Positions 6,892 to 35,214 of a stretch of 64,000 bases of DNA are shown here, piece by piece. Where the stretch lies: NCBI GenBank assembly GCA_963833985.1, contig CAWIAD010000002.1, positions 3,712,001 to 3,776,000 on the forward strand, given 5' to 3'. Positions within the stretch are counted from its first letter, which is position 1. Every line of letters begins with the position of its first letter. The notes beneath the pieces are model-generated. The model did not search any database, was not told the origin of the DNA, and saw only the letters and a list, made by a program, of their open reading frames with translations. The position numbers and the translations under genes are program-made. This stretch comes from an uncultured Planctomycetaceae bacterium (GTDB lineage Bacteria > Planctomycetota > Planctomycetia > Isosphaerales > Isosphaeraceae).

Positions 6892-7015
6892 CGCTGCTCC
6901 CTTCCCCGTGCGTTGCTCACGAGCCGGTCCGCCGGCCAGTGACGCGATTCTGGCTTGTTCAACCCCGACGCAGCCCACATCTTTTTTGAAATTTTAGTCG
7001 AATTTGAAGGCTCCA

Positions 7016-8613: not shown

Positions 8614-9455
8614 CGCACAGGCTCCGGGCCACGGCTTCCGGCGTCCGTTGCTCCAGCCGGCTTGGTGCCCACGTAGAGCGTGGCGATCCCGAATGTCAGG
8701 GGATACATCCTCAGGTCCACGAGCCCGCGTGATCCCAGCAGGTCGAGCAGCTCCTGGCCGTCGGGGAAGTTCATCACCGTTTCCGGCAGGTAATGGTAGG
8801 CCTGGTCCGGGTTGGGCGCAATGGCCTGGCCAATACGCGGCAGCACCCGCCGGAAGAACGCGCGGTAGAGCCGTCCCACGAGACATCCCCGGGGCCTCGA
8901 GAACTCCAGGACGGCCACCTTCCCACCTGGCCGCGCGGCGCGGATCATCTCGTCGATTCCGGTGACCGTGTCGCGCACGTTCCGCAGGCCGAAGGCAACG
9001 CTCACCACTCCGAAGGTGTTGCTGGGCACAGGGAGGCGCTGAGTGTCGCCCTCGACCAGGACGACCCGTGCCGAGGCGTCCCGCCGGCGCACCTTACGCT
9101 CGCCGAGAACGAGCATTTCGCGGCAGAAGTCGGTGCCGACCACGAGACTTCGTCCGCGACCTGCCCGATCATAGGCCAGTGCCAGGTCGGCTGTTCCCGT
9201 GCAGCAATCGAGGACCGGGACGCCCGGTTCGGGAGGGACCTTGCGGGTGGTCAGGCGCCGCCATGAGCGGTCGATGTTCAGGCTCAACAGGTGGTTCAGC
9301 AGGTCGTACCGCGCGGCGATCGACGCGAACATCCTCCGCACCCGCCGGTCGGACTTGTCGACCCGGTCCGGGGCAAGTGCCGAGGAGGTCTCGCCGCGAT
9401 CACGCGGAGCCTGCGGAAAACCAGTAGCAGCAGCGTTCGTGCCATGTCCGGACAT
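8610..9455 (-). CDS. ubiE: Demethylmenaquinone methyltransferase UbiE/MenG
   Basis: MFASIAARYDLLNHLLSLNIDRSWR, VLDCCTGTADLA, VAFGLRNV, PGGKVAVLEFSRP. Confidence 0.92.
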   Translation of the reverse strand: MSGHGTNAAATGFPQAPRDRGETSSALAPDRVDKSDRRVRRMFASIAARYDLLNHLLSLNIDRSWRRLTTRKVPPEPGVPVLDCCTGTADLALAYDRAGRGRSLVVGTDFCREMLVLGERKVRRRDASARVVLVEGDTQRLPVPSNTFGVVSVAFGLRNVRDTVTGIDEMIRAARPGGKVAVLEFSRPRGCLVGRLYRAFFRRVLPRIGQAIAPNPDQAYHYLPETVMNFPDGQELLDLLGSRGLVDLRMYPLTFGIATLYVGTKPAGATDAGSRGPEPVR

Positions 9456-14457: not shown

Positions 14458-15669
14458 ATGCTGCGCAAGGTCACCAGAGACGGTCACGGTTATTCGGTCG
14501 TTGACCTCAATGACGTGAGGCATGTGCTGGCGGTCGCGGTCCCGCGCGGGGATGGCGACCTGAAAACGCAGGCACAGGAAGCGCTGCGGACAATCGAGGC
14601 CGTGCACGATGAAGAAGACACTCTCGGCTCGATCGTGCACCAGGCGGTGTTCGTTGCCGATCCGGAGCTGATTCCGTCCTGCCGCGCAATCATCCGCGAG
14701 TTTTACGGTGAGGACCTGCCTGCGACCTCGTTCGTGATCCAGCCTCCCTGCCAGGGGAAGTTGCTGGCCATCGAGGCGATCGGCGTGGGCCGGGGCAAGG
14801 CGGACGTCCGGATCGAGCGGTTCAGCGACCAGCTCGTCCGCGTCACTCACAACGCGCTCTCGTGGGTGCACTGCGCCAACATCACGCCGCGCGCGGGCGT
14901 CAGCGGCGTGTACAACCAGACCGTCAGTGTGCTCTCGCAACTCCGCGGGATGCTGGCGAAGCTCGACGTCGGGTTCGACCACATCATCCGCACCTGGTTC
15001 TACCTGGGTGACATTGTCGGCGACGAGGGAGATACCCAGCGCTACAAAGAGCTGAACCGCGCCCGCACTGCTTTCTTTGAGGGCGTGGAGTTCCTGGCCG
15101 GCTGCCAGCCCGGCCTGCCCGAACCGCTCTCTCCCTATCCGGCGAGCACGGGCATCGGCGCGCAGGGCAGGGGCCTCATGCTCGGCTGCATCGCGCTGGC
15201 GACCAATCGCCCCGAGATCGTGGCCATGCCGCTGGAGAACCCGAACCAGACCTCGGCTTTCCACTACGCATCCTCGTACAGCCCCAAGAGCCCCAAGTTC
15301 GCCCGGGCGCTGGCCCTGTCGTGCGGCAACTACGCCACCATTTTCATCTCCGGCACGGCCAGCATCGTGTCCTCGGAATCGCGATATCGGGACGACGTTG
15401 AGGCGCAGACGCGCCAGACGCTGGACAACATCGAGCTCCTGATCTCCGAAAACAACCTGAAGCGGCATGGCCTGCCGGGGCTGGGTGCCACGTTCGAGAA
15501 CATGGGGCTGGTGCGCATCTACATCAAGCGCCAGGAGGACTACGAGAAGACCCGCGCCGTCTGCCAGGCACGGCTGGGCGACGTGCCCACCATCTATGCC
15601 GTGGCCGATGTCTGCCGTCCCGAATTGCTGGTCGAGATCGAGGGGATGGCCTTCTCCCGGCGCGGTTGA
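14458..15669 (+). CDS. Chorismatase of FkbO/Hyg5 family (Rid-fold domains)
   Basis: RTWFYLGDI, YKELNRAR, YPASTGIG, LENPNQTSAFHY..SPKFARA, FISGTASIV, ADVCRPELLVEIEG. Confidence 0.75.
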   Translation: MLRKVTRDGHGYSVVDLNDVRHVLAVAVPRGDGDLKTQAQEALRTIEAVHDEEDTLGSIVHQAVFVADPELIPSCRAIIREFYGEDLPATSFVIQPPCQGKLLAIEAIGVGRGKADVRIERFSDQLVRVTHNALSWVHCANITPRAGVSGVYNQTVSVLSQLRGMLAKLDVGFDHIIRTWFYLGDIVGDEGDTQRYKELNRARTAFFEGVEFLAGCQPGLPEPLSPYPASTGIGAQGRGLMLGCIALATNRPEIVAMPLENPNQTSAFHYASSYSPKSPKFARALALSCGNYATIFISGTASIVSSESRYRDDVEAQTRQTLDNIELLISENNLKRHGLPGLGATFENMGLVRIYIKRQEDYEKTRAVCQARLGDVPTIYAVADVCRPELLVEIEGMAFSRRG

Positions 15670-15750: not shown

Positions 15751-18700
15751 ATGGTTCGCCTGCATGACCGTGTTTGCCCCAGACGCTTCGGGTTGCTCGC
15801 CTTCGTCATCACCGTGCTGGCAGCGGGTGGTTGCCATGGGCCCGCCCCCGAAGCACCGGTGCCCGCACCGCCGGCCGCGCCAGCGCACGACCAGGCGGGC
15901 GTGACCGGCGCGACGGCCGGGGCCCTCTCGGCCTTCAACCGCGGAGCGGCCCAGCTGGAACAGTACCAGTACGCGGCTGCCGCGAAGACGCTCGAGGGAG
16001 TCGTCGCCTCGTCTCCGGGCTGGATCGCGGCCCGGTTCAACCTGGGCCTGGCGCTCCTCAACCTGCCCGAGACGCCCGACGCCCTGGACCGCGCCGAGGC
16101 TCAGTTCCAGAGCGTGCTCGCGTCTGAGCCCGAGAGTCCGTGGGCGCACTTCTGCCTGGGCGCTCTCTACCAGCACCGCGGAGAGTATGACCGGGCCGCC
16201 GATCATCTCGCGCGGGTCCATGCGGTCGATCCCCACGACCCCTTCGTGAGCTTTGAGTACGCCGAGTCGCTGCGCAAGCTGAATCGCGACCCCGAGGCGC
16301 TGCGCATCCTGGAACAGGTCGTACAGCGTGATCCGGGGTTCGTCTCGGCACTGTACAGCCTGGGCATGCTGTACAACCGGATGCACCAGCGCGAGAAGGC
16401 GGTTGCCGTCCTGAAGCGGTTTGGCGAGCTCAAGCCCCAGGAGCTGGCGGTCGGGTCTTACGGAGTGGTGGAACCTTATGCCGGCCGGGGCAAGTATTAC
16501 ACCGCACTGGGAGCTGACGGTCTGCCGGTTCCGGCCAGTGCCGGCACAGAGGCGCCCCGCGTGCTGTTCTCGCCTGAGATCCGCACGCTCGACGCACGGC
16601 TGGCGGCATGGACCTGGCACGGCGGCAAGGTGAGCGTCCCGGGCATCGCGGTGGGCGACGTCGATGGTGACGGCGACCAGGACCTGGTGATGGCGGGCAC
16701 CGGCTCCACGGGCCAGGCGCGCGTGCTGCTCAACGACGGCAAGGCGCATTTCCAGGGCGGACCGATCCTGGCGGAGCAGACCGTCGCACCCTGCCTGGGC
16801 GACATCGACAACGACGGCGATCTCGACCTCTGGCTGGGCCGGGAGGGGCAGGACCTGCTGCTTCTGGGTGACGGCAAAGGGACCTTCACCAGGGTTCCCG
16901 CACAGCCCGCAGCCGCCGCCGAATTCCTGACCACCTGTGCGCGCCTGCTCGACCTGGATAGTGACGGCGACCTCGACCTGCTGGCGATGCGCATCAAGGG
17001 CGGGTCGCTGCCCGCAGGGAACGAGCAGGTGCCCGCGGCCAGCCGCGTTTTCAACAACAACCTCGACGGCACCTTCGCGGACCTGGCGGCCAGCCATGGT
17101 CTGGCGCTGACTGGCCAGGCAATCTCGGCTGTCGTCCAAGACGACTTTGACAACGACCGCGACATCGACATGATCCTGCTTTCGCCCGCTGGCCGGCCAC
17201 TGGGATGGGAAAACTTCCGGATGGGCCAGTACCGCGTGCGGGACGCTCAGGAGACACAGCTTGAGATTGACCATCCCGTGGCAGCGACCACCGGGAACCT
17301 GTTCGGCACCGGCAACCGCGATCTGCTCGTCTTCGCCGGCAAGGAGCTGGCCCTGTTCCGGAATCGGGGCCTGTGGCGATTCGAGCGCGACGAGAGCTTC
17401 TCGGCAAGTCACGGGTCGCTGGGCGGGACGAGCGGTCAGTTCGTCGATATCGACAACGACGGCGACCTCGATCTGGTCATCGCCGATGCGCACCGCAGCG
17501 ACGGGACGCGCGGGCCAGCGCTCTTGCTCAATGACTGGCCAAACCGGCGGTTTCTCGATGCGGCCCGCGTCGATCCGGGGAACCTGCTCACGCAATGGAA
17601 GTGCGCTGGCCCCGCGCTGGTCGTGGCCGCCGATTTCGACGGCGATGGTAGACCGGACCTGCTCTTCGCGGCCATGGGCCAGGCGCTGTGGTCCTGCTCA
17701 ACGCCACGCGGGGGGGGAACTGGCTGGCACTCGATCTGGTCGGCCAGCGCGGGCAGGACCAGACCAGCCGTTCGCCGACCTCGGCCCTGGGCGCAAGGGT
17801 CGAGTTCCGTGCGGGACACGTCACGCAACAGCTCGTCGTGGGCACGCCATCGGGTGCCACCGCGCTGCCGCCCCTCCGCCTTCTGGCCGGGCTCGGGCCG
17901 CATCGCTCGGTGGACTGGCTGCGGATCCAGTGGCCCGATTCGCTCCTCCAGGCCGAGCTCGAGGTGGCGGGCAACCAGGTGCTGACGCTGCCGGAGGTGT
18001 GCCGCCGGACCAGCTCCTGCCCGCACCTCTTTGCCTGGGACGGCCACGGCTACGCATTCGTGTCCGACTTCGGCGGGGTCGGCGGGCTGGGTTACCGGAC
18101 AGGCCCGTCCTCCTTCGCTCGCCCCGATCCCACCGAGTACGTCACCCTGCCCGGGCTCGCGGTGCGCGACGGCGATTACGTCCTCCAGGTCGTCGAGCCG
18201 CTCGAGGAGGTCGTGTATCTCGACGAGTTGAAGCTGATTGCCGTGGATCATCCCCGGGGCACGCAAGTTCAACCCCGCGAGATGGCCGCCGTCGCAGCCG
18301 ATCCGCCGCTGTTCGAGCTTTACTGCTTCAGCCAGGTCGTCGCGCCGGTCCGCGCGGTGAACGACTGCGGTCAGGATGTCACGGCCGCGCTGGAGAAAAC
18401 CGATCGCGTCTACGCCAGCCCCGCGCTGCGCGACAGCCGCTTCACCGGGTTTGCCCGCGAGCATTTCGTGGAGCTGGATTTCGGGGATCGCCTGGGTGGG
18501 TTACCTCCGTGCGTGCACCCCGTGCTCTTGCTGGACGGCTGGGTTGAATATAGCACGTCCACGTCCAACTTTGCCGCGAGCCAGGCAGGGTTGCGGCTGA
18601 AGGCGCCGAGCGTCCAGGTCCTGCGTGGCGGCCGATGGGTCGAGCTGCGCACGAGGTCGGCTACCCCGCGGGGATTCGCCATACCATGACCATCGACCTT

Positions 18701-19272
18701 GCCGGCAAGCTCCGGCCTGGCGACGTCAAGCTGCGGATCACCAGCAACATGGATTTGTCGTGGGACCGGATCACCGTGGCGGCTCATCGCCCCGAGGCGG
18801 CCCCGAGACTGACTCAAGCACCCGCGCGCACGGCGGAGCTGCATTTCCTGGGCTATCCCCGCGAGTACTCGCCCGATGGGCGGCAGCCCAACCTGCTGGA
18901 TCATTCCAACGTCGATCCCTCCGACACATGGAGGCGCATGCCGGTGCCTACACCCGTTACGGCCAGGTCCGGCCCCTGCTGGAGTCCGCCGATGATCGAT
19001 TCGCGATCCTGGGCGCCGGCGACGAGGTCACGCTTTGCTTCCCGCAGAGCGCATTCGGTCCCATCCCGCCGGGCTGCACGCGTAGCTTCCTGCTCAAGAC
19101 CGATAGCTTCTGCAAGGACATGGATCTGTACACGGGCGGATCGGCAAGCGTGGACCCGCTGCCCTTCCATGCCATGAGCACTTACCCTTATGGTCCTGCC
19201 GAGCGGTACCCGGAGAGCGCGGAGTTTGTGCGCTATCGCCGGGAATACAACACGCGGATCATCGCCCCTTGA
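15751..19272 (+). CDS. Lipoprotein with TPRs, FG-GAP/VCBS repeats, ASPIC/UnbV domain and C-terminal extension; frameshifts near 17690, 18650, 18940
   Basis: Lipobox LAAGGC; TPR helices (FNLGLALLN, LYSLGMLY); repeated GDxDxDGDxDL motifs; GARVEFRAG..GLG..VDWLRIQWPD; SSCPHLFAWDG; continuous across ORFs 15691, 17688, 18635 and 18625. Confidence 0.8.
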
Positions 19273-20488
19273 TGGAGCACGGCGAAAGGGCCGGTTCGGC
19301 CTGGACTGTCCGCCCGGATCGAATGGTGCCGAGCACCACGCGACGACTGTTGCTTCCCAGGCTGTCCCAGGCGATGACTCCGGTGACACCCTCGTAGGGG
19401 CTGACCAGGCGCAGGGCGTCGCCGATTCTGGAACGGTTCAACCCGGCCTTGCGGATCGCCGCGATGAGCAGCTTGACCGCATCGTACGTGTGTGCCGCGG
19501 CATAATCAGGCAGCGCGTGGTACCGCGTTTCGAAAGCAAGGCGGAACGAAGGCGGCAAGGCGTCTGGGTTGCACAATAACGGGAAGAGCACGCCGTCGGC
19601 GGCAGGGCCGGCCGTGGCCGCGAATCGCCTCCGGCCCATGGCGTGAGTGCCCAGGATCAATCCGGAAAAACCGGCCGTGCGCAGTTCCCGGACCAGCAGG
19701 CCCGATGTTTCCGCCCCGGCCACGAGTACCACCGCGGTCAGGCTTTCCGCCAGGACGGTGCGTACCGTCGCGCTCATGCCGGCCCTTTCCGGCGGCAAAA
19801 CGTGCACGAATGACGGAGCGGAATGCCGGCGTTTCAGTTCTCGATCAAGCTCGGTGACGAACCGCCTGGAATCATGATCGGGGGCTGACACAAAACCATA
19901 CTTTCGATCGTTGCAGCGCTCCAGCAGAACCGTCGCCAGCACCGGTGCCTGGAGGTGGTCGCCCGGAAGCACAGAGAACATCCAGGGAACATTCGCGACG
20001 TTCGCGCTGCGGTCGCTACTGGCAGGGCAGACCAGCGGCAGCCGCGCCTTGGCGACAACCTGCTCGGCCAGGTGCGCCGAGGGGCCGTCGCTGCCGCCCA
20101 CGACCGCCCACACGCGATCGCGGTACGCCATCCGGGCGATGAGACCGGCTCCGGTTTTCCAGGGCTCGGCGCTCCATGCGGCGCGGAATCGGAATGGTTT
20201 ACCGTGGTAGCCGCCCTGGGCGTTGGCCTCATCCACGGCCAGCACCGCGGCCTTCCAGAGATCGCCGCTCTCGGGGTCATCCGGATTGTTCGTGCCGAAA
20301 TAACCGAGCAGCACCTCTGACACGTCGGCAGTCGTCTCGCGCTCGCGCCCGGGTCCGGCGTAGGGCTGGGCCTGGAGCCGGAAGTCGCGAAACGGCTGGA
20401 CCGGCGAAGCCCGTGGAGCAAGCGACGTCTGAGCCTGTGCGGTGGCCGCGGACGCCAGAACAGCCAGGGTGAGCAACGGCCAGCGCAT
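19259..20488 (-). CDS. Periplasmic binding protein type I (Leu/Ile/Val-binding-like)
   Basis: Signal peptide; LAVDEANAQGGYHG, VWAVVGG, AAHTYDAVKLLIAAIRKAG, YEGVTGVIAWD. Confidence 0.82.
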   Translation of the reverse strand: MRWPLLTLAVLASAATAQAQTSLAPRASPVQPFRDFRLQAQPYAGPGRERETTADVSEVLLGYFGTNNPDDPESGDLWKAAVLAVDEANAQGGYHGKPFRFRAAWSAEPWKTGAGLIARMAYRDRVWAVVGGSDGPSAHLAEQVVAKARLPLVCPASSDRSANVANVPWMFSVLPGDHLQAPVLATVLLERCNDRKYGFVSAPDHDSRRFVTELDRELKRRHSAPSFVHVLPPERAGMSATVRTVLAESLTAVVLVAGAETSGLLVRELRTAGFSGLILGTHAMGRRRFAATAGPAADGVLFPLLCNPDALPPSFRLAFETRYHALPDYAAAHTYDAVKLLIAAIRKAGLNRSRIGDALRLVSPYEGVTGVIAWDSLGSNSRRVVLGTIRSGRTVQAEPALSPCSIKGR

Positions 20489-20500
20489 GCGGTTTTTGCC

Positions 20501-21945
20501 TCACTCCCTGGCGCCTGGGGCCGCGGACCTGGAGATCCCCATTTGCTCACGCGAAAGGTACTTCCAGCGGGCCTGCTCGCGCCGGGCCAGGAACACCTCG
20601 CCCACATCGTCGAGCACGGGGCTGAAGCGGATCTCGCCGGTCACTCCTTGCCATGGCTCCCTGCGGTAAGCGATCAGGTCGCGCACCTTCGCCCGGTTGA
20701 GGCCGGCCTGCTGGATGGCCCAGATCAGCATGTTCATGCCGTCATAAGCATGTGCGGCGTACGTTTCGGGCTCCTCATGGAACCGGCGCGGAAGCGGTTG
20801 CGGAATTCCAGGTACATCGGCGCGGTCCGCGTCGGGTCCCACGGGTAGGCGCACACGACGCCTTCGGCATTCGCGCCGGCGATCCGAACGAACTCGTCGG
20901 AGACGCAACGGTCGCACGCCACGAACGGCTGGCTCATTCCCGCTGCCCGCATCTGGTTGAGGATCCTGGCGCCGTCGGCGGCGTCGCCCCAGTGGATGAC
21001 CACGTCCAGGTTCGCGGCCCTGAGCCGCTCCAGCTCGAGGCTGAAGTCCTCTGCGCCGATCTTGTACGCCATCTCGATCTGGATGGGACGCTCGAGCCGC
21101 CGGCTGGCATCGCTGATCTCGCGCACGCCGAATCGCCCGTAACGATTGCTCGCCCGGATGATGCCCGCGCGGCGGTACCCGGCCTTGCGGTAGAGGTAGT
21201 CGACCAGGATGTAATTCATCTGGCGGTCGTCGCCGATGCAGCGGGCGACCCACGGAATATTGGTCTCGATGAACGTCGGGTCGGTGTCGCCGGTGTTCAT
21301 GATCAGGACCTCGCACTTGAGCGCGACCCGGATCGCGATGTGGCTGTTGGCGCCGTCGATGGTGCCGAGGATCGCCCAGACCTTGTCCTTGTAAACCTGC
21401 TTGATGATCTCGTTGGCGGATGAGCCCCAGAGTCCGTTGTCGTTGGAGACAACCAGCTCGAAGGGAAGCTTGCGCTTCCGATAGCCGCCCTGTGCATTGG
21501 CCTCCTCGATCGCCAGCTGGCTCCCCTGGTACATCCTTCTGCCCAGCACTTCCTCATGGCTCTTGCCGCCGGTGGCCGCCGACACGGTCGGGTAGAGCGG
21601 CCCCAGGAAGCCGATCTTCACCGTGGACACAGAGACGGGCTCGGGCACGGCCCGGCCTGCCCCGGTCGCTTCAAGCTGGGTCAGGAAATGGGTCCTGAAC
21701 GGCTCCACGTGGTGAAACGGCTCGAGCTCCTTGACCGTGTGCGCGTACTGCTGCTCGGTCTTCAGGGGAAGACGCGGAACCTGGTAGGCGTTCAGCGCGT
21801 TGATCTCCTCGAGGATCGCCCTGGCATCGGCGTCAACGGCCGGTCCCGTCTCCGGAGGCTTCCCCGGCGGAGAGGAACCCTGCCCGAACGCGGGCGGGAT
21901 CAGCGCAACAAAGATCGACACACAAACAACTCGAATGTATTTCAT
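20501..21945 (-). CDS. Periplasmic binding protein type I (LIV-like), frameshift near 20790
   Basis: Signal peptide MKYIRVVCVSIFVALIPPAFG; VKIGFLGPL, QLAIEEANAQGG, VWAILG, AAHAYDGMNML, QGVTGEIRF. Confidence 0.82.
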
Positions 21946-21953
21946 ATTATTGA

Positions 21954-21975
21954 CATTTCTTTTTAAAAAGACATG
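21954..21975. promoter_or_regulatory. AT-rich near-perfect 22-bp palindrome just upstream of the PBP start
   Basis: CATTTCTTTTTAAAAAGACATG, one mismatched pair, in an otherwise GC-rich operon. Confidence 0.4.
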
Positions 21976-21983
21976 AGATGCTT

Positions 21984-23180
21984 CTAGTGATTGCCAGCAC
22001 GCCGGACTCCGGGGTAGTATCCGTCGCCCTTGCCCCATCCCAGCCCCCTGGCGGTGGCCACCCAGACGTCGTTGCCGTCGAAATCAAGATTGATCACGTA
22101 ATTGTGCGGCACGGTACGCTCGAGCTCGATGGTCTTGATTGGCTTTCCCCGGCGAAAGACCTTTGCCTCGCCGCGCAGAGTCTGGGGGTTCCGGGTGTAG
22201 GCGACATAGGTGTCGGAGAAGAAGTCGGCGACGACGCCCATCCCCTTGTCGGTGGCGAACCAACCTTCCGCCGAGCTGCGCCCCCGCACCGCGTTGGTGA
22301 AGTCGCTGGGGATGCCCGTCTCATTGGCATAGAACCCCCGCCAGTTGCGGCCGTCGTAGCGGCAGTTGCCGAAATACGTGGAGACCCAGAGCGCATCACC
22401 CACATGGCTGGCTCCGGTGACGATCACGTGGACAATACCGTCATCGCGGTACAGGTCGATCTCCATCTCGCCGTCGGGATCGATGTACTCCTTCCAGTGC
22501 GCGGTCTTCAGGTCGTACTCCAGGCAGCCGCTTCCCCACACGCCCAGGTAGACCTTCCCCTGGTCGACGCTCACTGAATAGTTCCAGATCTCCTCCATGG
22601 GGGCGTTCTTCTCGTTGAAGATCGCCCACTCGCGCGCCTTGGTGTTGTAGCGGCTGCACCCGGCGGTGGTTGCCGCCCAGACATTGTCGCCCTCCACGGC
22701 CACGCCGTAGACGACGTCGTTGACCAGCCCGCTGTTGAGCTGATGGAAATGGTCGAAACGCCCGCCACTGAACCGCGCCAGACCGCCGCCGAACAGCCCC
22801 AGCCAGACATCTCCGGTGTTGCGGTCCACGTCGATCGCGGTCACGGCCTGAAACGGCAGGCCGTCCTTCTCTTTCCAGCTCCGGATCTTGCCCGTTCGCT
22901 TGTCATAGCAGGCCAGACCGTCCTCGGTGCCGATCCACACTCTGGGCCCGTCCGCCTTGACGGCGAAGATGTGGTCGTTCGGCAGGCCGTCGGCCACCGT
23001 GAAGTGCTTCCACTGCGTGTACACGAAGGGCAGGGCGTCATCGGGCACATCCGCGCGCTGGCCGGCTGCCAGCAGCGGCGCCGGAGTGGGGGGTCTGGGC
23101 TCATCGCCGCCCAGCAAGCAGGGCAGCAGCGCACCCAGCAGGGCCGGTGCGAAGCCGGCGTTGGTTCGGGCTCTCTTCAT
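21984..23180 (-). CDS. Exported beta-propeller protein of two-component regulator propeller type (no kinase domain)
   Basis: Repeats DGLPNDHIFAV..VWIGTEDGLACYD, DGLPFQAVTAI..VWLGLFGGGLARF, SGLVNDVVYGV..VWAAT; signal peptide. Confidence 0.8.
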   Translation of the reverse strand: MKRARTNAGFAPALLGALLPCLLGGDEPRPPTPAPLLAAGQRADVPDDALPFVYTQWKHFTVADGLPNDHIFAVKADGPRVWIGTEDGLACYDKRTGKIRSWKEKDGLPFQAVTAIDVDRNTGDVWLGLFGGGLARFSGGRFDHFHQLNSGLVNDVVYGVAVEGDNVWAATTAGCSRYNTKAREWAIFNEKNAPMEEIWNYSVSVDQGKVYLGVWGSGCLEYDLKTAHWKEYIDPDGEMEIDLYRDDGIVHVIVTGASHVGDALWVSTYFGNCRYDGRNWRGFYANETGIPSDFTNAVRGRSSAEGWFATDKGMGVVADFFSDTYVAYTRNPQTLRGEAKVFRRGKPIKTIELERTVPHNYVINLDFDGNDVWVATARGLGWGKGDGYYPGVRRAGNH

Positions 23181-23213
23181 ACCTGTCCCTCGATCACTAT
23201 CTTGAAACTTGCA

Positions 23214-26139
23214 TCAGAGCGTTTTGAGGTACTCGATCAGATCGTTGAGCTGGTCCTTGGTCATGTCGTTGGTGACGCCGTGCCGGTCGTCGGGGTTGTA
23301 CCGCGTCCAGATTTCCTCGAGAGTCTCGGCAATGCCGTTGTGGAGGTAGGGGGCCGAGTCGTAGATGTTGTTCAGGTGCGGCACGTCCACCCGGTCCTCG
23401 ACGTCCAGCGTCATGCGCGTGCCGACGTCGTGCTTTTCGCGGTCAGTATAAAGCGGTGGAAAATGGCACGAGGCGCACCGTTTCAGCTTGGGTATCGGCC
23501 GGCCGTCGGCCGTGACGGCCCGGTCGAAGAGCTGCTTGCCCCGGCGCTGGGCGGCTGTCAGCTCCACGCCCGGCGCGATGGCGGTTCGGCGGCCGGGCGA
23601 TGGTGCTGATGTAATGATCCACGGCCGCGAGCTCATCCGGAGTGAAGGGCTGGATGCGTGTGAAGTAGACCGACAGCCGTGGTCCGCACTGCCGTGACAG
23701 CGTGGGGTTGGTGCCAGCCCACTTGAAAGGGCCGGTGTCGAGAATGCCGCGCAGCGTGCGGTTGTCCACGGGGGCCAGCCCAATGCCGTCGGCCTCGATG
23801 TCGTAGGTCAATCCGTCCACGTGACCATCGGGGTGGCACGTATGGCAGGAGAGCTGGCGATGGAAGGAGATGCCGGCATTGTGGAAGAGCCGCTCGCCGC
23901 GCCGTGCCTCGGTGACGACCCGCGGACCGCCCAGGTGCACCGTACCGGCCGCTTTCCTGCCGGGGATGTCGATCACCGTCAACGCGTCGTCCAGGGCGCA
24001 GGCAACCCACGCCGTCTTGCCGTCGGGAGCAATCGCCAGGCCGCGCGGGTTGCGGCCCGTGGGGACCAGCGCCGTGACGAACCGCGTCGCCTGACCCAGA
24101 TGGTTGGGCAGCACGTCCCGGCGCTCGTCCTCGGTCGCGCCCTGGACCAGTCCGGTAAGCTGTGCGAGGTCGACGATGGCGACCTGGTCGGACCCGGCGC
24201 TGGTGACCAGGGCCAGGGCCCCATCGGGCGTGACGGCCACGTCGGTCGGATCCGGAAACGATTCTCCGGCCTGGTCCAGCAGCACCTGGTCCACCCGGCC
24301 GTCCTCCCAGACCAGGCCCAGGCCGCTGGTGACCGTCCAGCCCTGGAGCATCCGGGTCATCGGCACGAGGTTCTTGGTACGCAGCAGCGTGGCCAGCGCG
24401 AACCGGCCCGAGGGATGCCAGGCCACCCCCTGGAGCATGTTGGCATCGGGCACCACGAGCCGATCGTCGATCGTCGCGCGGCCGCTGTCGATGATGCTGA
24501 TCTCGGACTGCGACGACTCCCGAAACTTGACGAACCGCGACAGGGCGTTCGTGACCAGAATCCGGGCGCCGTCCGGCGAGATCGCCAGGGCCCAGGGGCT
24601 GCGGCTGGCGGAGAGGCGCTTCCGCTCCCGCAGCGAGGCGGCGTCGAACACCGAGATGTCGTCCGAGGAGGTGTTCAGCACGTAGATCGTCTTGCCGTCA
24701 CGGTCAGTGCACACCCCGTGCGGCTCATCGCCGACCGGCACGGTGGCGACCACGCGCGCCGCGGACGCGTCCACCACCGACAGGGTGTCATCCAGGCGGT
24801 TCGTGACGTAGGCCCTCTGGCCGTCGGGGCTGAACGCCAGGCCGGTCGGTTGACCCCCGACGACGATCTCCGCGCGCTTGCGGCGCTGCGCCGCGTCCAG
24901 GACGCAGACCGTCGCGGACGCCTCGCAGGCGACCCAGATCTCCTTGCCCCCCGGCCGGAACGCCACGTTGATGGGAGTCTTGTACACGACCCGCTCGGCC
25001 AGCGCCGGCGCTCCTGCCGGGTGGGCGATCAGCGGCATGGCCGCCTTGACATCGAACGGCTTGCCATGCGCCTGGCCATGGCAAGAGAGGCAGGCCGTTT
25101 CCCGGACCGCGACCATCCGCTCGGCGGCCACGGCCCCCTGCGTCCTGGCCGCCCGCTCGGTCGCGTGCGAGCTGCCAGGCCCATGGCACGACTCGCAGCC
25201 CACGCCTTCCAGGATCGAGTAGCTGTCGGCCGTTCCGGCCGCGGCCCGATGAAAGGCCGTGCTGTGGCATTTCAGGCAGGCCGCGCTGCGCTGGGGGTCG
25301 GCCGTGACGCCCGTCTGAACAGCCATCCGGGCGGCTTCCGGAGTGCCAAGCGAGGCGTAGGCACGAGCATGCGGCGTGATCTGCCAGCGGCTGAACGCAA
25401 AGCCCTTCTCGGCGGAATCATGGCACTCGGCACAGGCGCTCGAGCCGATGTAGCGGGCCTTTGCGTGGTTGTCGACCGGAGGGATCACGGCAGGCTCGCT
25501 GGTCTTTCGCTGCCCGTTCCCGGGTGTGGGATGAGCCAGTTCATGAAGCGCACGGGCAAGGTCAAACGGAACCGCCGGCGTCGCCGGGTGGGCCGCCGGC
25601 CGCGCCGGCGCCGCGGAGGCGCGGGCCAGCGACCTCGTGTGCGAGGGCTTCTCCTTGTGGCACTTCATGCAGTCGGCCCCGCTGGGGCTGGTCATGTGAA
25701 CCGGCGATTCGGCTCTCAGCGCGCCGCCAGCCGTCCAGGATTCGGCATGCTCGCTTCCCGGACCGTGGCATTTCTCGCACTGCACGCCGTTGCGGATGGA
25801 GAAGGTCTCGTCCTTTTCCCAGTTTTCGGCGTCGGCGGCCGTGGCATGGCAGCCGAGGCAGAGGGGCGACTTCTGCGGCTCGACGGGCACTCCGCTGATC
25901 GCGGCGATGGCATGCGCCTGCGGCGCGGCCAGGCTGGCGTACGCCCGCGCGTGCCGCGAGTGCTGCCAGATGGTCGTCTGGTGCCCCATCCCCGCGCCGT
26001 CGTGACAGGTCGCGCACACGCCGGCACCTACGTACACCGGACGCCGCGGCTGGGCCTGAGACGGCGAGCCCGCTAGGATCAGGATGGCGCCGAGCACCAG
26101 GCCGGAACGAGGCAACCGGGGTTCGCACGCCGCACTCAT
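23214..26139 (-). CDS. Decaheme protein: two c554-type tetraheme modules + YVTN beta-propeller + di-heme CCP/MauG-like domain (HzsB/HzsC-like); frameshift near 23575
   Basis: Signal peptide; CxxCH x10: CATCH, CLGCH, CEKCH, CMKCH, CAECH, CLKCH, CESCH, CLSCH, CHTCH, CASCH; AYVTNRLDDTLSVVD-type repeats; RGERLF, RGKQLF, VPHLNNIYDSAPYLHNG. Confidence 0.85.
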
Positions 26140-26155
26140 GGCTTGATCACTCCGT

Positions 26156-27901
26156 TCAGCGGGCAGGTTGAACGATGCGCAGGAACTGGTTCGCCGCCAC
26201 GTCCTTGAGCGCAGTGGTCGTGCCGTCCGGCCAGCGCACCTCGACCTTGTCGGCCCTGACCGCCTTCCCCAGGCCGAAGTGCAGCCGTGCGTCCCCCTGT
26301 GAGAGATAGCCGCGCACCGGAATCAGGTCGTCCACCTGCACGAGCGATCCCGCCGTGACGACGACGCGAGCGCCGATGGCGTCGGTCCTGCCGTTGGCAA
26401 GCCGGGCCGACACGGTGAGCCAGTGGCCCTGGGTATTGCCGCCGTCGTTGCGCAACAGACGCGGCGAGTCGTTGAGGTTCACGACCAGCAGGTCGACGTC
26501 GCCGTCGTTATCGAAATCTCCCCAGGTGGCGCCCCGGCCGACGAACTTCTGGGAAAAGTAGGGCCCGGACCTTCTGGCCACGTCGACGAAATGGCCCTTG
26601 CCGTCATTGTGGGCCATCACCGCCCCCTCGCCGTACTCGTGGTGGGCGTCGCCGTTGGCGATGAACAGGTCGAGGTCGCCGTCGTTGTCGAAGTCCTGAA
26701 GCACCGCGCCCCAGCCGGTGTACTGGCCACAGATGAGCGCCAGCCCGGAGGCGTTGGTCTGGTCCTCGAAGAACTCGCCGCGGTTCGTGTGCAGGCATCC
26801 GTAACCCATGTCGGGAATGTAGAGGTCAAGCCGGCCGTCGCGGTTGATATCGCCGAAGACCGGCCCCATCGAGGAGACGCCCTGGCCACCCTCGCCAAAC
26901 GCCAGCCCGTAAACCAGTGCGTCGCTGGCGAACTTGCCATGACCCAGGTTGCGGTAGAACGCGCTCTCCATTGCGTCGTTGGCCACGTAGACGTCGAGCC
27001 GGCCCGTGTTCAGAAAGTCGGCCGCGGTGGCGCTCATGGCGCGGCCGTCCTTGCTGAAGACGCCGGCATCGCGGCTCACCTCGCGGAACGTGCCGTCGCC
27101 ATTGTTGCGCATCAGGTGGTCCGGCTGGCCGGGATAGCTCAAGGGCCCGGGATAGCCGGCGGCCGCGTAGTAGTTGCGGAACTTGCCGCCATCATATTTC
27201 AGGTACGTCGCCACGAACACGTCGAGCCTGCCGTCGCCGTCGTGGTCGAACCAGACTCCCGAGACGCTCCAGCCGGGCAGGTCCAGGCCCGACTGCTTCG
27301 AGACGTCCGTGAAGGTGCCGTTGCCGTTGTTGTGGTAGAGCACGTTCGGCCCGTAGTTCAACACATAGAGGTCGACATGACCGTCACCGTCGTAGTCGGC
27401 CGCCGAGCAGGCCACGCCGTAGCTTTCGCCTCCGCCCACGCCGGCCCGGTCGGTCACGTCGGTGAACGTGCCGTCATGGTTGTTGCGGTACAGGCGGTTG
27501 CTCAACTTCCCCCGGAGCCGACGGCCCGTGTTGTCGTTCACGTCGCTGCGATAGCGCCCGGAGAGCAGATAAAGATCCAGCCAGCCGTCGCCGTCGTAGT
27601 CGAAGAACATCGCACCGGCGCCGGTGCCCTCGACGATGTTGCTCAGCTCGGCATCACCGAAGCTGTGCTTGAAATGGATCCCGGCCTGCTCGGTGACGTC
27701 GGTGAATACCGGAACCGGCGGATCGTCGGCCAGCGCCGGCCGTGATCCCAGGACCGCCATCAGAAAGAGCAAAGGCAGGAGCATCCGTCCGCCACAATGA
27801 GCGAATTGCCATCCATCCGCTGTGTGGCTGCGGTGAAACGTGGCGCAGGCCCACGCGCTGCGGACCCGGGATTGTTGCTTGGCGTTCATTGGCGTGCTCA
27901 T
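26156..27901 (-). CDS. CRTAC1-family FG-GAP/ASPIC-UnbV protein
   Basis: FTDVTEQAGI, FDYDGDGWLDLY, repeated NNGDGTFTDV, DAIGARVVV..GYLSQGDARLHFGLG..VEVRWPDG; alternative start near 27785. Confidence 0.88.
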   Translation of the reverse strand: MSTPMNAKQQSRVRSAWACATFHRSHTADGWQFAHCGGRMLLPLLFLMAVLGSRPALADDPPVPVFTDVTEQAGIHFKHSFGDAELSNIVEGTGAGAMFFDYDGDGWLDLYLLSGRYRSDVNDNTGRRLRGKLSNRLYRNNHDGTFTDVTDRAGVGGGESYGVACSAADYDGDGHVDLYVLNYGPNVLYHNNGNGTFTDVSKQSGLDLPGWSVSGVWFDHDGDGRLDVFVATYLKYDGGKFRNYYAAAGYPGPLSYPGQPDHLMRNNGDGTFREVSRDAGVFSKDGRAMSATAADFLNTGRLDVYVANDAMESAFYRNLGHGKFASDALVYGLAFGEGGQGVSSMGPVFGDINRDGRLDLYIPDMGYGCLHTNRGEFFEDQTNASGLALICGQYTGWGAVLQDFDNDGDLDLFIANGDAHHEYGEGAVMAHNDGKGHFVDVARRSGPYFSQKFVGRGATWGDFDNDGDVDLLVVNLNDSPRLLRNDGGNTQGHWLTVSARLANGRTDAIGARVVVTAGSLVQVDDLIPVRGYLSQGDARLHFGLGKAVRADKVEVRWPDGTTTALKDVAANQFLRIVQPAR

Positions 27902-29976
27902 GGCCCTCTGGCTGCCCTGGAGTCTTCGTACGGCCCGGCGGTCCGGCGTGCTCCGAGGTCGATCCAGCGCACGATGGTCCGCATTTCGGCGGCAGTAAGC
28001 GGCGCGCTCCTGCCCGCGGGGATCGGCCGGGCGGCCGTCGACCCGGCTGCACCGTCCCAGGGCCGGGACGTGTTCCGCCCCAGCAGATGCCAGACCAGAG
28101 GGCTGGTCCGCGCACGCCCGGGGTGGACGTACTTTCCCAGCCCGGAGGAGGGATCCGCGGCTGCATCGGGCGCGAGCAGGGCACGGTAGAGGTGATCAGG
28201 CGCGGCAGCCCGGTCCCCTTCCGCCGCGGCTGGAGGTGCCAGGTCAATCCCTGCCGCGGCCGAACCGCCCTGATGACAGGGCAGGCACCTGGTGCGAAGG
28301 ATGGGAACGACGTCGCGCGCAAAGTCCGTGAACCCCTCACCCTGGACGCCGATCGCCGTGGCCGCCGGCGCGTTCAGCGCGTCTGGTACCCGGTTGGGAG
28401 GAGTGCGCTCGGGGTCCTCGTGGCAGCCAATGCAGCCCTGTGCCTGGTGATTCCGCGCCCAGATCCAGCCGCAGCTCCGTACCGCGATGCCCTGCTCGTC
28501 GAGCAGTTGAAGCTGGATCGGCCGGCTTGCCGGTACGACCACCTGGAACGACCCGTCGCTCTGGATGGGCAGCTCGGTCAGGATCCGCCGCGCGGAGAGC
28601 TGGGGAAGCGGTCCCGATCCGTTTGTCGTGCAGGCGGCGCCGAGTCCGCTCGAGCCCTCAGGCGCCGGCAGTCCCTCAACCACGCGGAGAGTCTTCATCA
28701 TTCCGTGGGTTCGCCACATGCGGTCCGGCAGATCGCTCGTGAAGACGCTCATGCAGTAGAACCTGGCCAGCCGATCCGCGGGGTCGACCACGCTCGAGCG
28801 GCCATCGGGGCGCGGCCGGCTGAAGACGGCGCGGGGCTTGAGCTCGTGGAAGCGGGGATCATCGAGAATCAGCGCCCGCTGGCCGGTCGCCGGATCGAAG
28901 CGGTACAGGCCGAACGACGAGCCCGCGTCTCCGGAACGCCAGGCCACGACCAGCTGGCCGTCGGGAAACGCCGAGGGAGAGGAATACAGCCCGTCATGCG
29001 GCCCGGTGATCGTCCGGTACGTGTGCAGGGGACTGCGCAGCGACGCCCCCGCCAGCCGCCCCGCGCCGTCGCGGGCCGCAGGGTCAGCCTCGACCACGAC
29101 GAGGTTGCCGTCGGTGGTGATGCACGGCATCCGCCGCAGTCTCCCCGGGCTCCGCGGGACGAGGATGGCCCGATCCGATCCATCGGTGTTGACCGCCTCG
29201 AGGGCCAGCCGTCCGGCCACGCCGAGGTCGAGCGTCGCTCGATGCCACGACGCGTAAGCTATCCGCCCATCGGGCATGATCGCCGGGTCAAGGTCGCTCG
29301 AGAGATTGTAGGTGATGCGCTCTGGCAGCGAACCGCTGAGCTTGCAGGTGTACAGGCTGGTAACCGGGCCCCCGTCGCGCTCGTCGAGCTGGCCGCCTTG
29401 CGTCTTCACGAAGGCGATCTGCTCCCACGGCTCCGGCTGGCTGATCGTGAAGAAGCTCGACGTGTAAATGGGCGACTGGCAACGGCCGACATTGCGGGTG
29501 ACCTGCCGCTCCTTCAAGCTTTGCAGGTCCATCTCGTACACATCCCAGGCGTCTCCGGGCCGCTTCTGGCCCGCGAACAGGATCCGCCGTCCATCCGGGG
29601 AAACGTCCGCGTCGGTCGCGCTGTGGAACGACGGCGTGAGGACCCGCGTCGATCCGTCAGGGGCGAGCAAGACCAGCCGCGCGGGCGGATCCGGGCTGGA
29701 CACCGAGCCGGCGGACTGCGGCCAGTTCGGCTCTGGAGTCACCGGGACCTGCGTGAAGACCAGCGCGGGCCGGGCGGGCGAGTGGCGGCCGGCGGCCGCG
29801 GGGGGCTGAGCAGCGGCCCATTCAGTTCCGCAAAGCGCTGCCAGGCAAGCGAGGACCGCCCGGATGGAACGCCTGGCGCCGCGGGACCGGGCGCGGCACA
29901 CCGGGCCGACCTCCGGGAACGGCAGTGGCCGTGCCCCGGGGCCGGAGAACGCGTGGATGGCGGTAAGCTCCCTCAT
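27898..29976 (-). CDS. Hydrazine synthase alpha-subunit-like protein (TolB-type propeller + HZS-alpha middle domain + 2 c-hemes)
   Basis: DVSPDGRRILFAG, ERITYNLSSDLDPAIMPDGRIAYASW, AVNTDGSD, DGSFQVVVPASRPIQLQLLDEQGIAVRSCGWIWARNHQAQGCIGCHE, FARDVVPILRTRCLPCH, PGRARTSPL, WIDLGA. Start uncertain. Confidence 0.75.
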   Translation of the reverse strand: MRELTAIHAFSGPGARPLPFPEVGPVCRARSRGARRSIRAVLACLAALCGTEWAAAQPPAAAGRHSPARPALVFTQVPVTPEPNWPQSAGSVSSPDPPARLVLLAPDGSTRVLTPSFHSATDADVSPDGRRILFAGQKRPGDAWDVYEMDLQSLKERQVTRNVGRCQSPIYTSSFFTISQPEPWEQIAFVKTQGGQLDERDGGPVTSLYTCKLSGSLPERITYNLSSDLDPAIMPDGRIAYASWHRATLDLGVAGRLALEAVNTDGSDRAILVPRSPGRLRRMPCITTDGNLVVVEADPAARDGAGRLAGASLRSPLHTYRTITGPHDGLYSSPSAFPDGQLVVAWRSGDAGSSFGLYRFDPATGQRALILDDPRFHELKPRAVFSRPRPDGRSSVVDPADRLARFYCMSVFTSDLPDRMWRTHGMMKTLRVVEGLPAPEGSSGLGAACTTNGSGPLPQLSARRILTELPIQSDGSFQVVVPASRPIQLQLLDEQGIAVRSCGWIWARNHQAQGCIGCHEDPERTPPNRVPDALNAPAATAIGVQGEGFTDFARDVVPILRTRCLPCHQGGSAAAGIDLAPPAAAEGDRAAAPDHLYRALLAPDAAADPSSGLGKYVHPGRARTSPLVWHLLGRNTSRPWDGAAGSTAARPIPAGRSAPLTAAEMRTIVRWIDLGARRTAGPYEDSRAARGP

Positions 29977-33566: not shown

Positions 33567-35214
33567 AGGCTGTGATTTTTTCGGAGATCCCCATTGTACT
33601 GAAAATGTGATCATGATATAATTCAGAACAGCGATGGCCCTCCGTCCTGCTGGCGTTTGCACCCACTCATCCCCGCGAGGCTCCCGTGACAATCCTCCCC
33701 CTGCTGCCGGACAACCTCCCCGAGCCCACCCCCGAGCAGGCCGCCAACACGCCCGGTCGGGGCAAACCCAGGCTTCGGGTCCCGCACCGCGATCAGGTTG
33801 AATTCACCTGGACCTCGCTCGACGATCGCCTCGATCCCGACTCTCAGGCCCGCGTCGTCTGGACCATGGTCTGCCGCCTGGACCACGACGCCTGGCTCGC
33901 CGACATCAAGGCCGTCGAGGGCCACGTCGGCCGCGACGCCACCGACCCCCGGTTGCTGGTCGCGCTCTGGGTGTTCGCCACCCTCAAGGGGGTCGGCAGT
34001 GCGCGCGAGCTGGAACGCCTCTGCAAGAACCACCTCGCCTACCAGTGGCTCTGCGGTGGCGTCTCGGTGAACTACCACATGCTCGCCGACTTCCGCTCCC
34101 AGGGAGGCGAGAAGTGGGACGAAATGCTCACCCAGATCGTCGCCACGCTCATGGACGAAGGCTTGGTCACCATGGAGCGGGTGGCCCAGGATGGCATGCG
34201 GGTGCGGGCCGACGCCGGTAAAAGTTCCTTCCGCAGTGGGGAGCGGCTCAAGGAGTTGCTGGCCGAGTCCGAAGCACAGGTCCAGGCGCTCAAAGAACTG
34301 GCTGAAACCAACCCTGACGAACTGTCGAAACGGCAGCGGGCCGCCTGCGCGCGTGCTGCGGCAGAGCGTCAAGCGCGGATCGAGGAGGCGGCACGCCATT
34401 GCGAGGAGTTGCGGCAGAAGAAAGAGAAAAGAAACAAGGGGAGAAAAGAGAAATCGTCCGAGGCGCGCGCGTCGACCACCGATCCGGAGGCGCGGAACAT
34501 CAACTTCAGCGACGGCGGCTATCGCCCCGCGTTCAACGTGCAGTTCGCCACCGACACGGCGACAGGCATCGTGGTGGGGGTGGACGTGACCAACGCCGGC
34601 ACCGACAGCGAGGAAATGCCGCCGATGCTCGATCAACTGGAGACGCGTTACAACGACGTGCCGGATGAGATGCTTGTCGATGGTGGGTTTGCATCTTTGG
34701 ACGCGATTGATGCGGTCGAGGAGCGTGGCTGCAAGGTGTATGCACCGATCAAGGACCAGGAGAAGCAGAAGGAGGCGGGCAAAGACCCGTACGCCCGCAA
34801 GCCGCACGACACGGACAACACTGCGGCGTGGCGGGAGCGGATGGGCACGGAGGCGGCGCAGTTGATCTACAAGCTGCGGGCCCAGACGGCGGAGTGGGTT
34901 AACGCGATGTGCCGTAATAGAGGGCTTTGGCGGATGCCGGTGCGTGGCCGGACAAAATGTCGGATCGTGGCGACGCTGTACGCGATCACGCATAATCTGA
35001 TGCACCAGGGGAACGTGCGCGCGGCGGTCGCGGAGGGGCAGGGATGAGGTAAAAAGGGGTAGAAAACAGGCAGCGGAGGGCATTTTCGAGCCTCGATAGC
35101 GGAGAGAACACCCACAGGTGACGTGATCGCAGGGGAACTACCGCGACCCCGACCCCTGATCAATCGACGCACGCCGATGGGAAAACCCGCCGTGCGGTCG
35201 AAAACTCACAGTCT
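33567..35214 (+). mobile_element. IS1182-family insertion sequence (about 1.65 kb)
   Basis: Imperfect terminal IRs AGGCTGTGATTTTTTCG / revcomp AGACTGTGAGTTTTCG; flanking direct repeat CGGAG at 33562-33566 and 35215-35219 (3-5 bp depending on end placement); single transposase. Confidence 0.85.
33686..35047 (+). CDS. IS1182-family transposase
   Basis: GRDATDPRLLVALWVFATLKGVGSARELERLC..AYQWLCGG..NYHMLADFR (DUF772-like), VAQDGMRVRADA, STTDPEAR, FNVQFATD, LVDGGF, YKLRAQTAEWVNA. Confidence 0.88.
   Translation: MTILPLLPDNLPEPTPEQAANTPGRGKPRLRVPHRDQVEFTWTSLDDRLDPDSQARVVWTMVCRLDHDAWLADIKAVEGHVGRDATDPRLLVALWVFATLKGVGSARELERLCKNHLAYQWLCGGVSVNYHMLADFRSQGGEKWDEMLTQIVATLMDEGLVTMERVAQDGMRVRADAGKSSFRSGERLKELLAESEAQVQALKELAETNPDELSKRQRAACARAAAERQARIEEAARHCEELRQKKEKRNKGRKEKSSEARASTTDPEARNINFSDGGYRPAFNVQFATDTATGIVVGVDVTNAGTDSEEMPPMLDQLETRYNDVPDEMLVDGGFASLDAIDAVEERGCKVYAPIKDQEKQKEAGKDPYARKPHDTDNTAAWRERMGTEAAQLIYKLRAQTAEWVNAMCRNRGLWRMPVRGRTKCRIVATLYAITHNLMHQGNVRAAVAEGQG

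Follow-up and report, generated by a model that had tools for sequence, protein, structure and literature searches.

What would a relative of the hydrazine synthase (HZS) of bacteria that oxidize ammonium anaerobically (anammox bacteria) be doing in a planctomycete that appears not to be one of them? The question is raised by a cluster of eight genes in a 64,000-nt stretch of DNA (hereafter the window; contig CAWIAD010000002.1, positions 3,712,001 to 3,776,000) from an uncultured, soil-type Planctomycetaceae bacterium (assembly GCA_963833985.1, here G000; 10.2 Mb, 65% GC, 96% complete). The cluster adds a further copy to a kind already in print but functionally uncharacterised, which Hägglund et al. 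(2025; PMC12758564; statements on this and other published work refer to the available portions of each source) named ‘clade I’ HZS homologs, and it is almost certainly not an anammox HZS. We propose, with a probability of roughly 0.38 and on the strength of sequence comparisons, that its products form a heme complex in the periplasm that has two sites and acts on an aromatic acid derived from chorismate. The members of the cluster are:

27898..29976, minus strand: HzsA-like protein (alpha) with a six-bladed propeller, a middle domain and a C-terminal cytochrome domain (PF18582, 5C2V_A)
26156..27901 (start possibly 27784), minus strand: exported CRTAC1-like protein with an FG-GAP propeller and an ASPIC/UnbV domain (PF13517, PF07593)
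23214..26139, minus strand: decaheme fusion (beta-gamma) of two c554-like tetraheme domains, an HzsB-like seven-bladed propeller and an HzsC-like diheme domain (5C2V_B, 5C2V_C)
21984..23180, minus strand: stand-alone sensor-type (Reg_prop) propeller (PF07494)
20501..21945, minus strand: LIV-type (Peripla_BP_6) binding protein 1, SBP1 (PF13458; LivJ/LivK, E 1e-15)
19259..20488, minus strand: LIV-type binding protein 2, SBP2 (PF13458)
15751..19272, plus strand: predicted TPR-FG-GAP-ASPIC lipoprotein, convergent with and overlapping SBP2 (TPR, FG-GAP and ASPIC matches)
14458..15669, plus strand: FkbO/Hyg5-type chorismatase-like protein of the Rid fold, without an export signal (matches to 5AG3 and 4BPS)

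A first-pass annotation of this DNA had described seven of these genes, six on the minus strand plus the convergent TPR gene, and we recovered all of them at the same coordinates. The tight packing it reported was measured as gaps of 16, 33, 38 and 12 bp with a 4-bp overlap of alpha and the ASPIC gene, and the convergent gene does overlap the last minus-strand gene by 14 bp. What it overlooked was the eighth member, the chorismatase-like gene, which ends 81 bp before the TPR gene starts. Its view that all six minus-strand products carry export signals was accepted from their N-termini, a by-eye judgement and not the output of a predictor, with the alpha and ASPIC starts uncertain; the complex would be placed in the periplasm.

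The assignment of all three HZS subunit architectures to this locus is borne out by profile and structure comparison. Alpha scores 71 bits against the HZS_alpha family PF18582 (cut-off 26.6) and matches the Kuenenia HzsA chain 5C2V_A in four stretches (E 5e-45), and the top Foldseek match of its predicted structure (predicted local distance difference test, pLDDT, 78.8; predicted template-modelling score, pTM, 0.80) is likewise 5C2V (TM 0.66-0.68). The closest named matches of alpha are Isosphaeraceae and Aquisphaera proteins. Identity to the A. giovannonii protein P0018 is 56%; across phyla alpha identity is 39-48%. Since Bacteroides thetaiotaomicron, used as a control genome, also has a match above the PF18582 cut-off, the alpha middle domain on its own is no anammox marker. 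The beta-gamma protein matches c554, YncE-like propeller and CCP_MauG/cytochrome c families, its beta part matching HzsB (5C2V_B) at E 8e-37 and the gamma piece that follows a frameshift matching HzsC (5C2V_C) at E 8e-10. It carries ten CxxCH motifs, nine in one frame and one past the frameshift, of which eight belong to the two c554-like domains; intact homologs have all ten in a single frame. Against the NCBIfam HZS equivalogs the window proteins score 179 (alpha, NF052339), 143 and 49, under cut-offs of 800, 560 and 625, respectively, and an intact homolog scores 216 against a cut-off of 1250.

The residues around the hemes set this family apart from HZS (Kuenenia numbering is our own mapping from phmmer alignments and published numbers, offset by +27 for the alpha chain and +39 for gamma). 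Alpha has two CxxCH motifs, CIGCH for heme alpha-I in the middle domain and CLPCH in the C-terminal cytochrome domain. The sequence at and after the first is CIGCHEDPERTP, which lacks a counterpart of Tyr591, and in 77 of 77 alpha sequences the eight residues that follow this motif include no Tyr. In HZS, Tyr591 is a ligand of heme alpha-I, His587 binds zinc together with Cys303, and His772 makes heme alpha-II bis-His. In the alignment to 5C2V_A there is likewise no counterpart of alphaCys303, nor of alphaHis772, the aligned stretch being devoid of His; the distal alpha-II position (His772/Met) is Ile in the window and Met in 35 of the 77 by pattern, with 11 of 77 not parsed. The gamma domain is more conservative. 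The third thioether Cys165 of gamma-I and the distal His332 of gamma-II are kept, as read from the homolog L024 against 5C2V_C and present in the window too, so gamma-II is probably bis-His as in HZS. A gamma Trp, Gln, Cys, Arg and distal His are shared by all 32 aligned homologs and the window, where Gln-Cys-Gly-Pro-Arg, the Trp and the distal His were read from the alignment, and the pattern W...[QE]CGxR occurs in 33/33 motif matches of sister and metagenome loci. By the same alignments gammaHis144 has become Trp and gammaAsp168 Arg in 32/32 homologs and in the window. The loop after the gamma Cys reads QCGPRLSVYFTR and contains no Glu of the peroxidase Gln/Pro/Glu triad, as placed by sequence only. 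In both c554-like domains of the window (25780-25740 and 25197-25150, minus strand) the third heme motif is followed by a His at a position that is Tyr in 31-32 of 32 distant homologs, and the Met of those homologs is lacking; in the first domain this His is found in close relatives too, suggesting that c554 heme ligation differs between lineages.

An interface between the two heme proteins is also predicted. The beta-gamma fold and the complex were modelled on intact homologs (L024 and the G010 loci) in place of the frameshifted window gene. The L024 beta-gamma model has a pLDDT of 73.9 and 5C2V_B as its top match (TM 0.91 of the target). Pairing alpha 70-510 of G010 with its beta-gamma 76-634 gave a score of 0.69, the best control giving 0.01; of 157 solved complexes 116 attain the mark for a complex, as do 2 of 215 mismatched pairs; contact agreement between runs was at least 85% and partner pLDDT at least 83. 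The predicted contacts join gamma 511-522 to alpha 381-386 and 498-510, so that the loop after the gamma Cys meets a conserved alpha DGRSS motif, with the alpha-I motif included in the interface. The score may reflect memory of the solved 5C2V and, because a like complex has already been solved, the model shows likeness and not binding.

The gene set recurs well beyond this genome, in line with the co-occurrence expected by the first-pass annotation. A scan of GTDB for alpha gave at least 568 confirmed stretches (about 1,100 match the alpha motif by estimate), and clade-I counts below refer to the best 80 of these, which come from Planctomycetota, Acidobacteriota and one member of the Anaerolineales; such loci are mutually related and not independent, and a locus is called informative where enough DNA is available to show the gene. 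Gene order is nearly fixed: by a strict rule the ASPIC gene follows alpha in 71/76 informative loci, and is visible in the map at the five misses, with beta-gamma found in 66/66, Reg_prop in 56/59, SBP1 in 53/54 and SBP2 in 45/50. The cluster is nevertheless patchily distributed: it occurs in 7 of 121 genomes of the family and in 6 of 14 of the genus, and in a sample of the phylum it was found in 21 of 401 genomes, 16 of these being distant sister types.

The evidence for a substrate comes from the neighbours. The protein encoded at 14458-15669 matches the chorismatases Hyg5 (5AG3, E 1e-35) and FkbO (4BPS, E 1e-30), and counterparts of Hyg5 Gly240, Cys327 and Glu334 are all present in the alignment to 5AG3, the first two of which we take to be Hyg5-type determinants. 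Glu334 is the catalytic acid of Hyg5, whose product is 3-hydroxybenzoate (PMC7170507; see also PMC4685789). The gene is single copy in G000 and is found in all seven cluster carriers among the 121 family genomes. It lies at 25/80 clade-I loci (22/55 among those with at least 2 kb of upstream DNA), in 22 of these 25 on the same strand and immediately 5' of alpha, and within the operon in 12/17 sister loci. A reverse search of metagenomes from the short one-domain Rid form returned a cluster gene at 58/80 loci, or 29/39 with 1.5 kb on both sides, the Rid gene standing immediately after Reg_prop in 49/80. Chorismate supply is represented as well: a gene for 3-deoxy-D-arabino-heptulosonate-7-phosphate (DAHP) synthase, scoring over the TIGR01361 cut-off, lies immediately upstream of alpha in 11/13 informative sister operons from metagenomes, and in L221 its stop codon overlaps the GTG that opens the alpha frame. 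It is present at 9/17 GTDB sister loci and 5/80 clade-I loci; with three such genes in the 10.2 Mb of G000, a 20-kb stretch would contain one less than 1% of the time. A sister system in which alpha and beta-gamma are both missing (L136:6316-19901, L142:7762-19901, L151:1173-13357) combines ASPIC, c554 (or HAO-like heptaheme), Reg_prop, binding protein and DAHP synthase genes with chorismate synthase (L136, L151), a NapH-like protein and a BagE/FevW-like ligase (all three loci) and an Rrf2 regulator, and looks like an undescribed biosynthetic cluster. The chemistries considered by the first-pass annotation left out the chorismate-derived aromatic chemistry to which these neighbours point. Two further arrangements were seen near these genes: a tryptophanase/tyrosine phenol-lyase gene directly upstream of a DAHP synthase-led operon in two similar loci (L170, L176:1492-2847), and, at six loci (L192:1554-3626, L178, L184, L195, L208, L214), some of them without the HZS-like cluster, a TPR protein that has a single CxxCH and is encoded close to the short Rid gene.

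Of the remaining exported proteins, Reg_prop is the best-conserved product of the cluster, with 64-72% identity across phyla. Its nearest solved chains are propellers of hybrid two-component sensors, and an ESM Atlas search with it returned Reg_prop clusters only. In L142 it forms one protein with c554, and in L151 with c554 plus a binding protein, which ties the propeller and binding-protein parts to the heme module; other long open frames over Reg_prop were mostly upstream open-frame artefacts, leaving these two as the real fusions. No permease or ATPase gene accompanies the LIV-type binding proteins in the cluster or recurs beside them at related loci. A binding-protein system of the pyrroloquinoline quinone/lanthanide type was considered and set aside, as TIGR03866 is matched by the propeller only, below cut-off, and the binding proteins match no such family. 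The TPR-FG-GAP-ASPIC protein is about 1150-1200 aa in intact homologs, the window copy carrying three frameshifts, and lies near the cluster in 18/33 genomes with downstream DNA examined. A paralog occurs in G000 (C1:305430-308990) in a row made up of a TPR protein, a nitrilase-family gene and this second TPR-FG-GAP-ASPIC gene (L083:9430-15231; G000:C1:305429-311230). This nitrilase is highly conserved (mostly 77-90% identity), and a nitrilase/amidase adjoins 9/80 cluster loci, but it was dropped as non-specific because 94 of the 121 family genomes carry it, whereas 7 of the 121 carry the cluster, and because the G000 copy adjoins the TPR-ASPIC paralog. By tblastn G000 has 15 ASPIC/FG-GAP paralog sites and about ten beta-gamma-like sites, and 12 of its frames hold at least three CxxCH motifs.

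Taken together, these features suggest the following scheme. DAHP synthase, in the sister operons, would raise the supply of chorismate, which the Hyg5-like enzyme would turn into a hydroxybenzoate-type acid to be exported from the cytoplasm. The LIV-type proteins and Reg_prop, beside which no transporter genes lie and which two loci join to a cytochrome in one protein, may then bind the acid and hand it over to the heme complex. Electrons would pass from the eight c554-type hemes and bis-His gamma-II by way of the conserved Trp to the three-Cys-linked gamma-I, where the Gln/Glu-Cys-Gly-x-Arg pocket may activate a small co-substrate such as O2, H2O2 or NO. With the gamma-I loop predicted to pack on alpha beside the alpha-I motif, the activated intermediate could reach alpha-I, as hydroxylamine does in HZS, and might there be coupled to the aromatic acid.

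Several observations weigh against this scheme. The chorismatase-like protein scores 165 against TIGR04444, under the cut-off of 325, and the short one-domain form only about 35-43 bits, so that the substrate of the Rid protein can only be inferred. No Rid gene was seen in the examined DNA of 55/80 clade-I loci (33/55 with 2 kb upstream), and most clade-I loci show neither a Rid gene nor a DAHP synthase; none of the latter lies beside the window cluster, the three copies in G000 being elsewhere. Six family genomes have the Rid gene and no Reg_prop marker, 10/39 informative Rid loci lack a cluster gene, the reverse query was itself built from cluster-linked genes, and the loci, being kin, do not count as independent. 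Because L136, L142 and L151 lack alpha and beta-gamma, the chorismate genes there may serve the propeller/binding-protein module and not the HZS-like pair. The best solved matches of the binding proteins are amino-acid binders, at low scores, and pLDDT falls below 50 in the heme alpha-I stretch of the alpha model and in most of the gamma domain of the single-chain L024 model.

Other explanations have to be set beside the aromatic-acid complex. It is possible, if doubtful, that the cluster is a periplasmic reductase of NO, hydroxylamine or H2O2 that carries out the gamma half-reaction only, the chorismate genes supplying a quinone-like mediator or being loosely attached. The third Cys of gamma-I and the distal His of gamma-II are kept as in HZS, where gamma-I has been proposed to reduce NO to hydroxylamine with Asp168 tied to proton supply (PMC12607021), but that Asp is Arg in all 32 aligned homologs and in the window, the peroxidase Glu is missing from the loop after the gamma Cys, and NirK, NirS and NrfA were not found in G000. 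Eight wired hemes would suit a multi-electron reduction, a NapH-like quinol-dehydrogenase protein accompanies three sister loci and an Rrf2 regulator two, and the diheme enzyme BthA still reduces H2O2 with His in place of its Tyr ligand (PMC6405878); the binding proteins and the operon-heading DAHP synthase would nevertheless be left unexplained. The same BthA work bears on a quite improbable alternative, namely that gamma is a MauG-type maturase that turns a partner-protein Trp (in alpha, Reg_prop or ASPIC) into a quinone cofactor by oxidation. The inter-heme Trp is present in 32/32 homologs, the gamma domain gives weak MauG/MbnH profile matches and the partners have invariant Trp residues. 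Bis-Fe(IV) chemistry in MauG and BthA, however, requires a Tyr-His six-coordinate heme and is abolished by a Tyr-to-His change (PMC6405878), and the ligand at the Tyr position is His in 32/32 homologs, so a bis-His gamma-II argues against such chemistry.

It seems unlikely that the cluster is a signalling unit, with a hydroxybenzoate made by the cytoplasmic genes as the signal, the binding proteins and propeller as its sensors and the hemes passing on redox state. The sensor-domain relatives of Reg_prop and the binding proteins without a transporter would fit such a unit, and in Xanthomonas 3-hydroxybenzoate from XanB2 serves as a diffusible signal. A kinase/response-regulator pair recurs in five loci, but these are few, the cluster has no conserved membrane transducer, and invariant open heme pockets with a third heme thioether suit catalysis better. 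Among the least probable readings is a working hydrazine synthase, or another ammonia-using N-N-forming enzyme, in a non-anammox host, although whole-length homology and the predicted HZS-like assembly are as such an enzyme would have them and Suarez et al. (2023; PMC10732223) raised the idea for Phycisphaerae. Against it stand the missing Tyr after the alpha-I motif in 77/77 sequences, the unmatched Cys303 and His772, the low equivalog scores given above and the same verdict in Hägglund et al. (PMC12758564). Hydrazine dehydrogenase (HDH) was not found in the 96%-complete G000, where the best match reaches 61-64 bits against a cut-off of 900. As to the genome check for hao and hdh genes proposed by the first-pass annotation, an 8-heme gene of the hydroxylamine oxidoreductase (HAO) family does exist, about 130 kb from the cluster: it encodes a short protein of 441 aa (HDH score 64 against 900) followed by a membrane protein (L082:7471-9685; G000:C2:3873470-3875684). 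It was rejected as a partner on this distance and on its failure to track the cluster, the family occurring in 15/29 carriers and 3/5 same-genus non-carriers. Only slightly less improbable is that the window copy is a decaying relic. Five frameshifts fall in three of the eight genes (near 23575 in beta-gamma, near 20786 in SBP1, and near 17690, 18649 and 18941 in the TPR gene); but hslU, aceA and ffh of the same window are truncated or split too, the relatives G010, G013 and G044 have frame breaks at other positions, and every heme motif and invariant residue is retained. Because of the broken genes elsewhere in the window and the differing breaks in the relatives, the frameshifts are most likely assembly errors.

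The surroundings of the cluster add context. The glcD/E/F, aceA and aceB genes reported earlier are present in the window, as are an IS1182-family transposase (33686-35047, plus strand) 3.7 kb upstream of alpha, past an ECF-sigma/WD40 gene, and the futalosine-route menaquinone genes mqnE, mqnP/ubiA-like, ubiX and ubiE (5740-9455, minus strand). The last belong to another chorismate-derived pathway and lie 5-9 kb from the chorismatase-like gene; they are syntenic in G010 (L097), and their closeness is possibly only genus-level gene order. A promoter and terminator scan found nothing above chance level, and G000 has two heme-copper oxidase subunit I genes.

Returning to the aromatic-acid complex, a broader and distinctly tentative extension is that the closest non-anammox relatives of HZS supply the tailoring step, in the periplasm, of a small-molecule pathway of Planctomycetota and Acidobacteriota that is widespread yet undescribed and runs from DAHP synthase through chorismate to a hydroxybenzoate-type acid, onto which two heme sites would couple an intermediate derived from NO or O2. 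If that were true, anammox HZS would descend from a biosynthetic enzyme in which an organic acceptor was swapped for ammonia; the origin of HZS is an open question, and Hägglund et al. (PMC12758564) placed its nearest relatives without a substrate. What is new here is that the cluster is linked to genes for a chorismatase-like protein, for DAHP and chorismate synthases and for an aryl-acid ligase, and to fusions that join cytochrome, propeller and binding protein. The chorismate neighbours offer a first concrete substrate class and make the question of function testable. For annotation, the practical point is that clade-I-type genes can pass wrongly for anammox markers. The earlier description of the cluster as an HZS-type redox complex of unknown chemistry holds as regards homology to the three subunits, the predicted interface and conserved co-occurrence, none of its three refuting conditions having come true, while its N-N option is weakened because the N-N-forming site (Tyr591/Zn) is absent.

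How, then, does the window cluster compare with systems already described? The first-pass annotation knew of no functional description of the gene set; the set itself has in fact been published (PMC12758564), though with no function given in the available text of that paper or of PMC10732223, the latter reporting hzs-like genes in Phycisphaerae and suggesting a broader family with other substrates. In clade I as described by Hägglund et al., a CRTAC1/FG-GAP gene lies between those for alpha and beta-gamma, two genes for ABC binding proteins follow downstream, and two c554 domains bring eight extra hemes, the carriers including Aquisphaera, Thermogutta, Novipirellula, Syntrophobacter, Paludibaculum and Opitutus; clade-I members lack Tyr591, Cys303 and His772, keep Cys165 and have Trp for His144, and hydrazine synthesis was rejected for them with the function left unnamed (PMC12758564). 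The window shows no core difference: alpha, CRTAC1 and beta-gamma stand in the same order, two binding-protein genes again lie downstream, and the proteins show a pair of c554 domains at the N-terminus (ten hemes), the alpha-II motif, the same Tyr591 gap, the same loss of Cys303 and His772, Cys165 and the Trp. It likewise shares its genome with a second, clade-IV-type pair (L001:8786-13535; G000:C1:1684785-1689534), whose beta-gamma lacks both c554 and the gamma Cys and is followed by a frameshifted alpha. The available text and supplement of PMC12758564 make no mention of the chorismate genes, Rid, a stand-alone Reg_prop or Asp168, although its gene-order figure may show the genes, and its available parts contain no complex model; no paper on the function or chorismate link of the cluster was found in a search that had most subscription journals outside it.

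Anammox HzsABC (Kuenenia, 5C2V) shares all three folds with the window proteins, with two hemes each in alpha and gamma, a three-Cys gamma-I, a bis-His gamma-II and a similar predicted alpha/beta-gamma contact. The window differs in lacking the Tyr591/Zn site and His772, in the His144-to-Trp and Asp168-to-Arg changes, and in having eight extra hemes, a reversed gene order, four extra exported proteins and no HDH. The second half-reaction of HZS has been placed on oxidised heme alpha-I (bioRxiv 10.64898/2026.02.25.707902), a site that is altered in the window protein. With the diheme family of bacterial cytochrome c peroxidase (bCCP), MauG and BthA the gamma domain shares its fold and the inter-heme Trp, but by alignment its six-coordinate heme is His/His where theirs is Met/His or Tyr/His, its distal loop has Cys and Arg, and a propeller and c554 domains form part of the same polypeptide. 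The chorismatases Hyg5 and FkbO (5AG3, 4BPS) have the same two-domain Rid fold as the window protein, in which Gly240, Cys327 and Glu334 are matched; the window protein scores below the family cut-off and many of its linked homologs are one-domain, and the known chorismatases serve polyketide, peptide or pigment pathways and not, as proposed here, a periplasmic heme complex.

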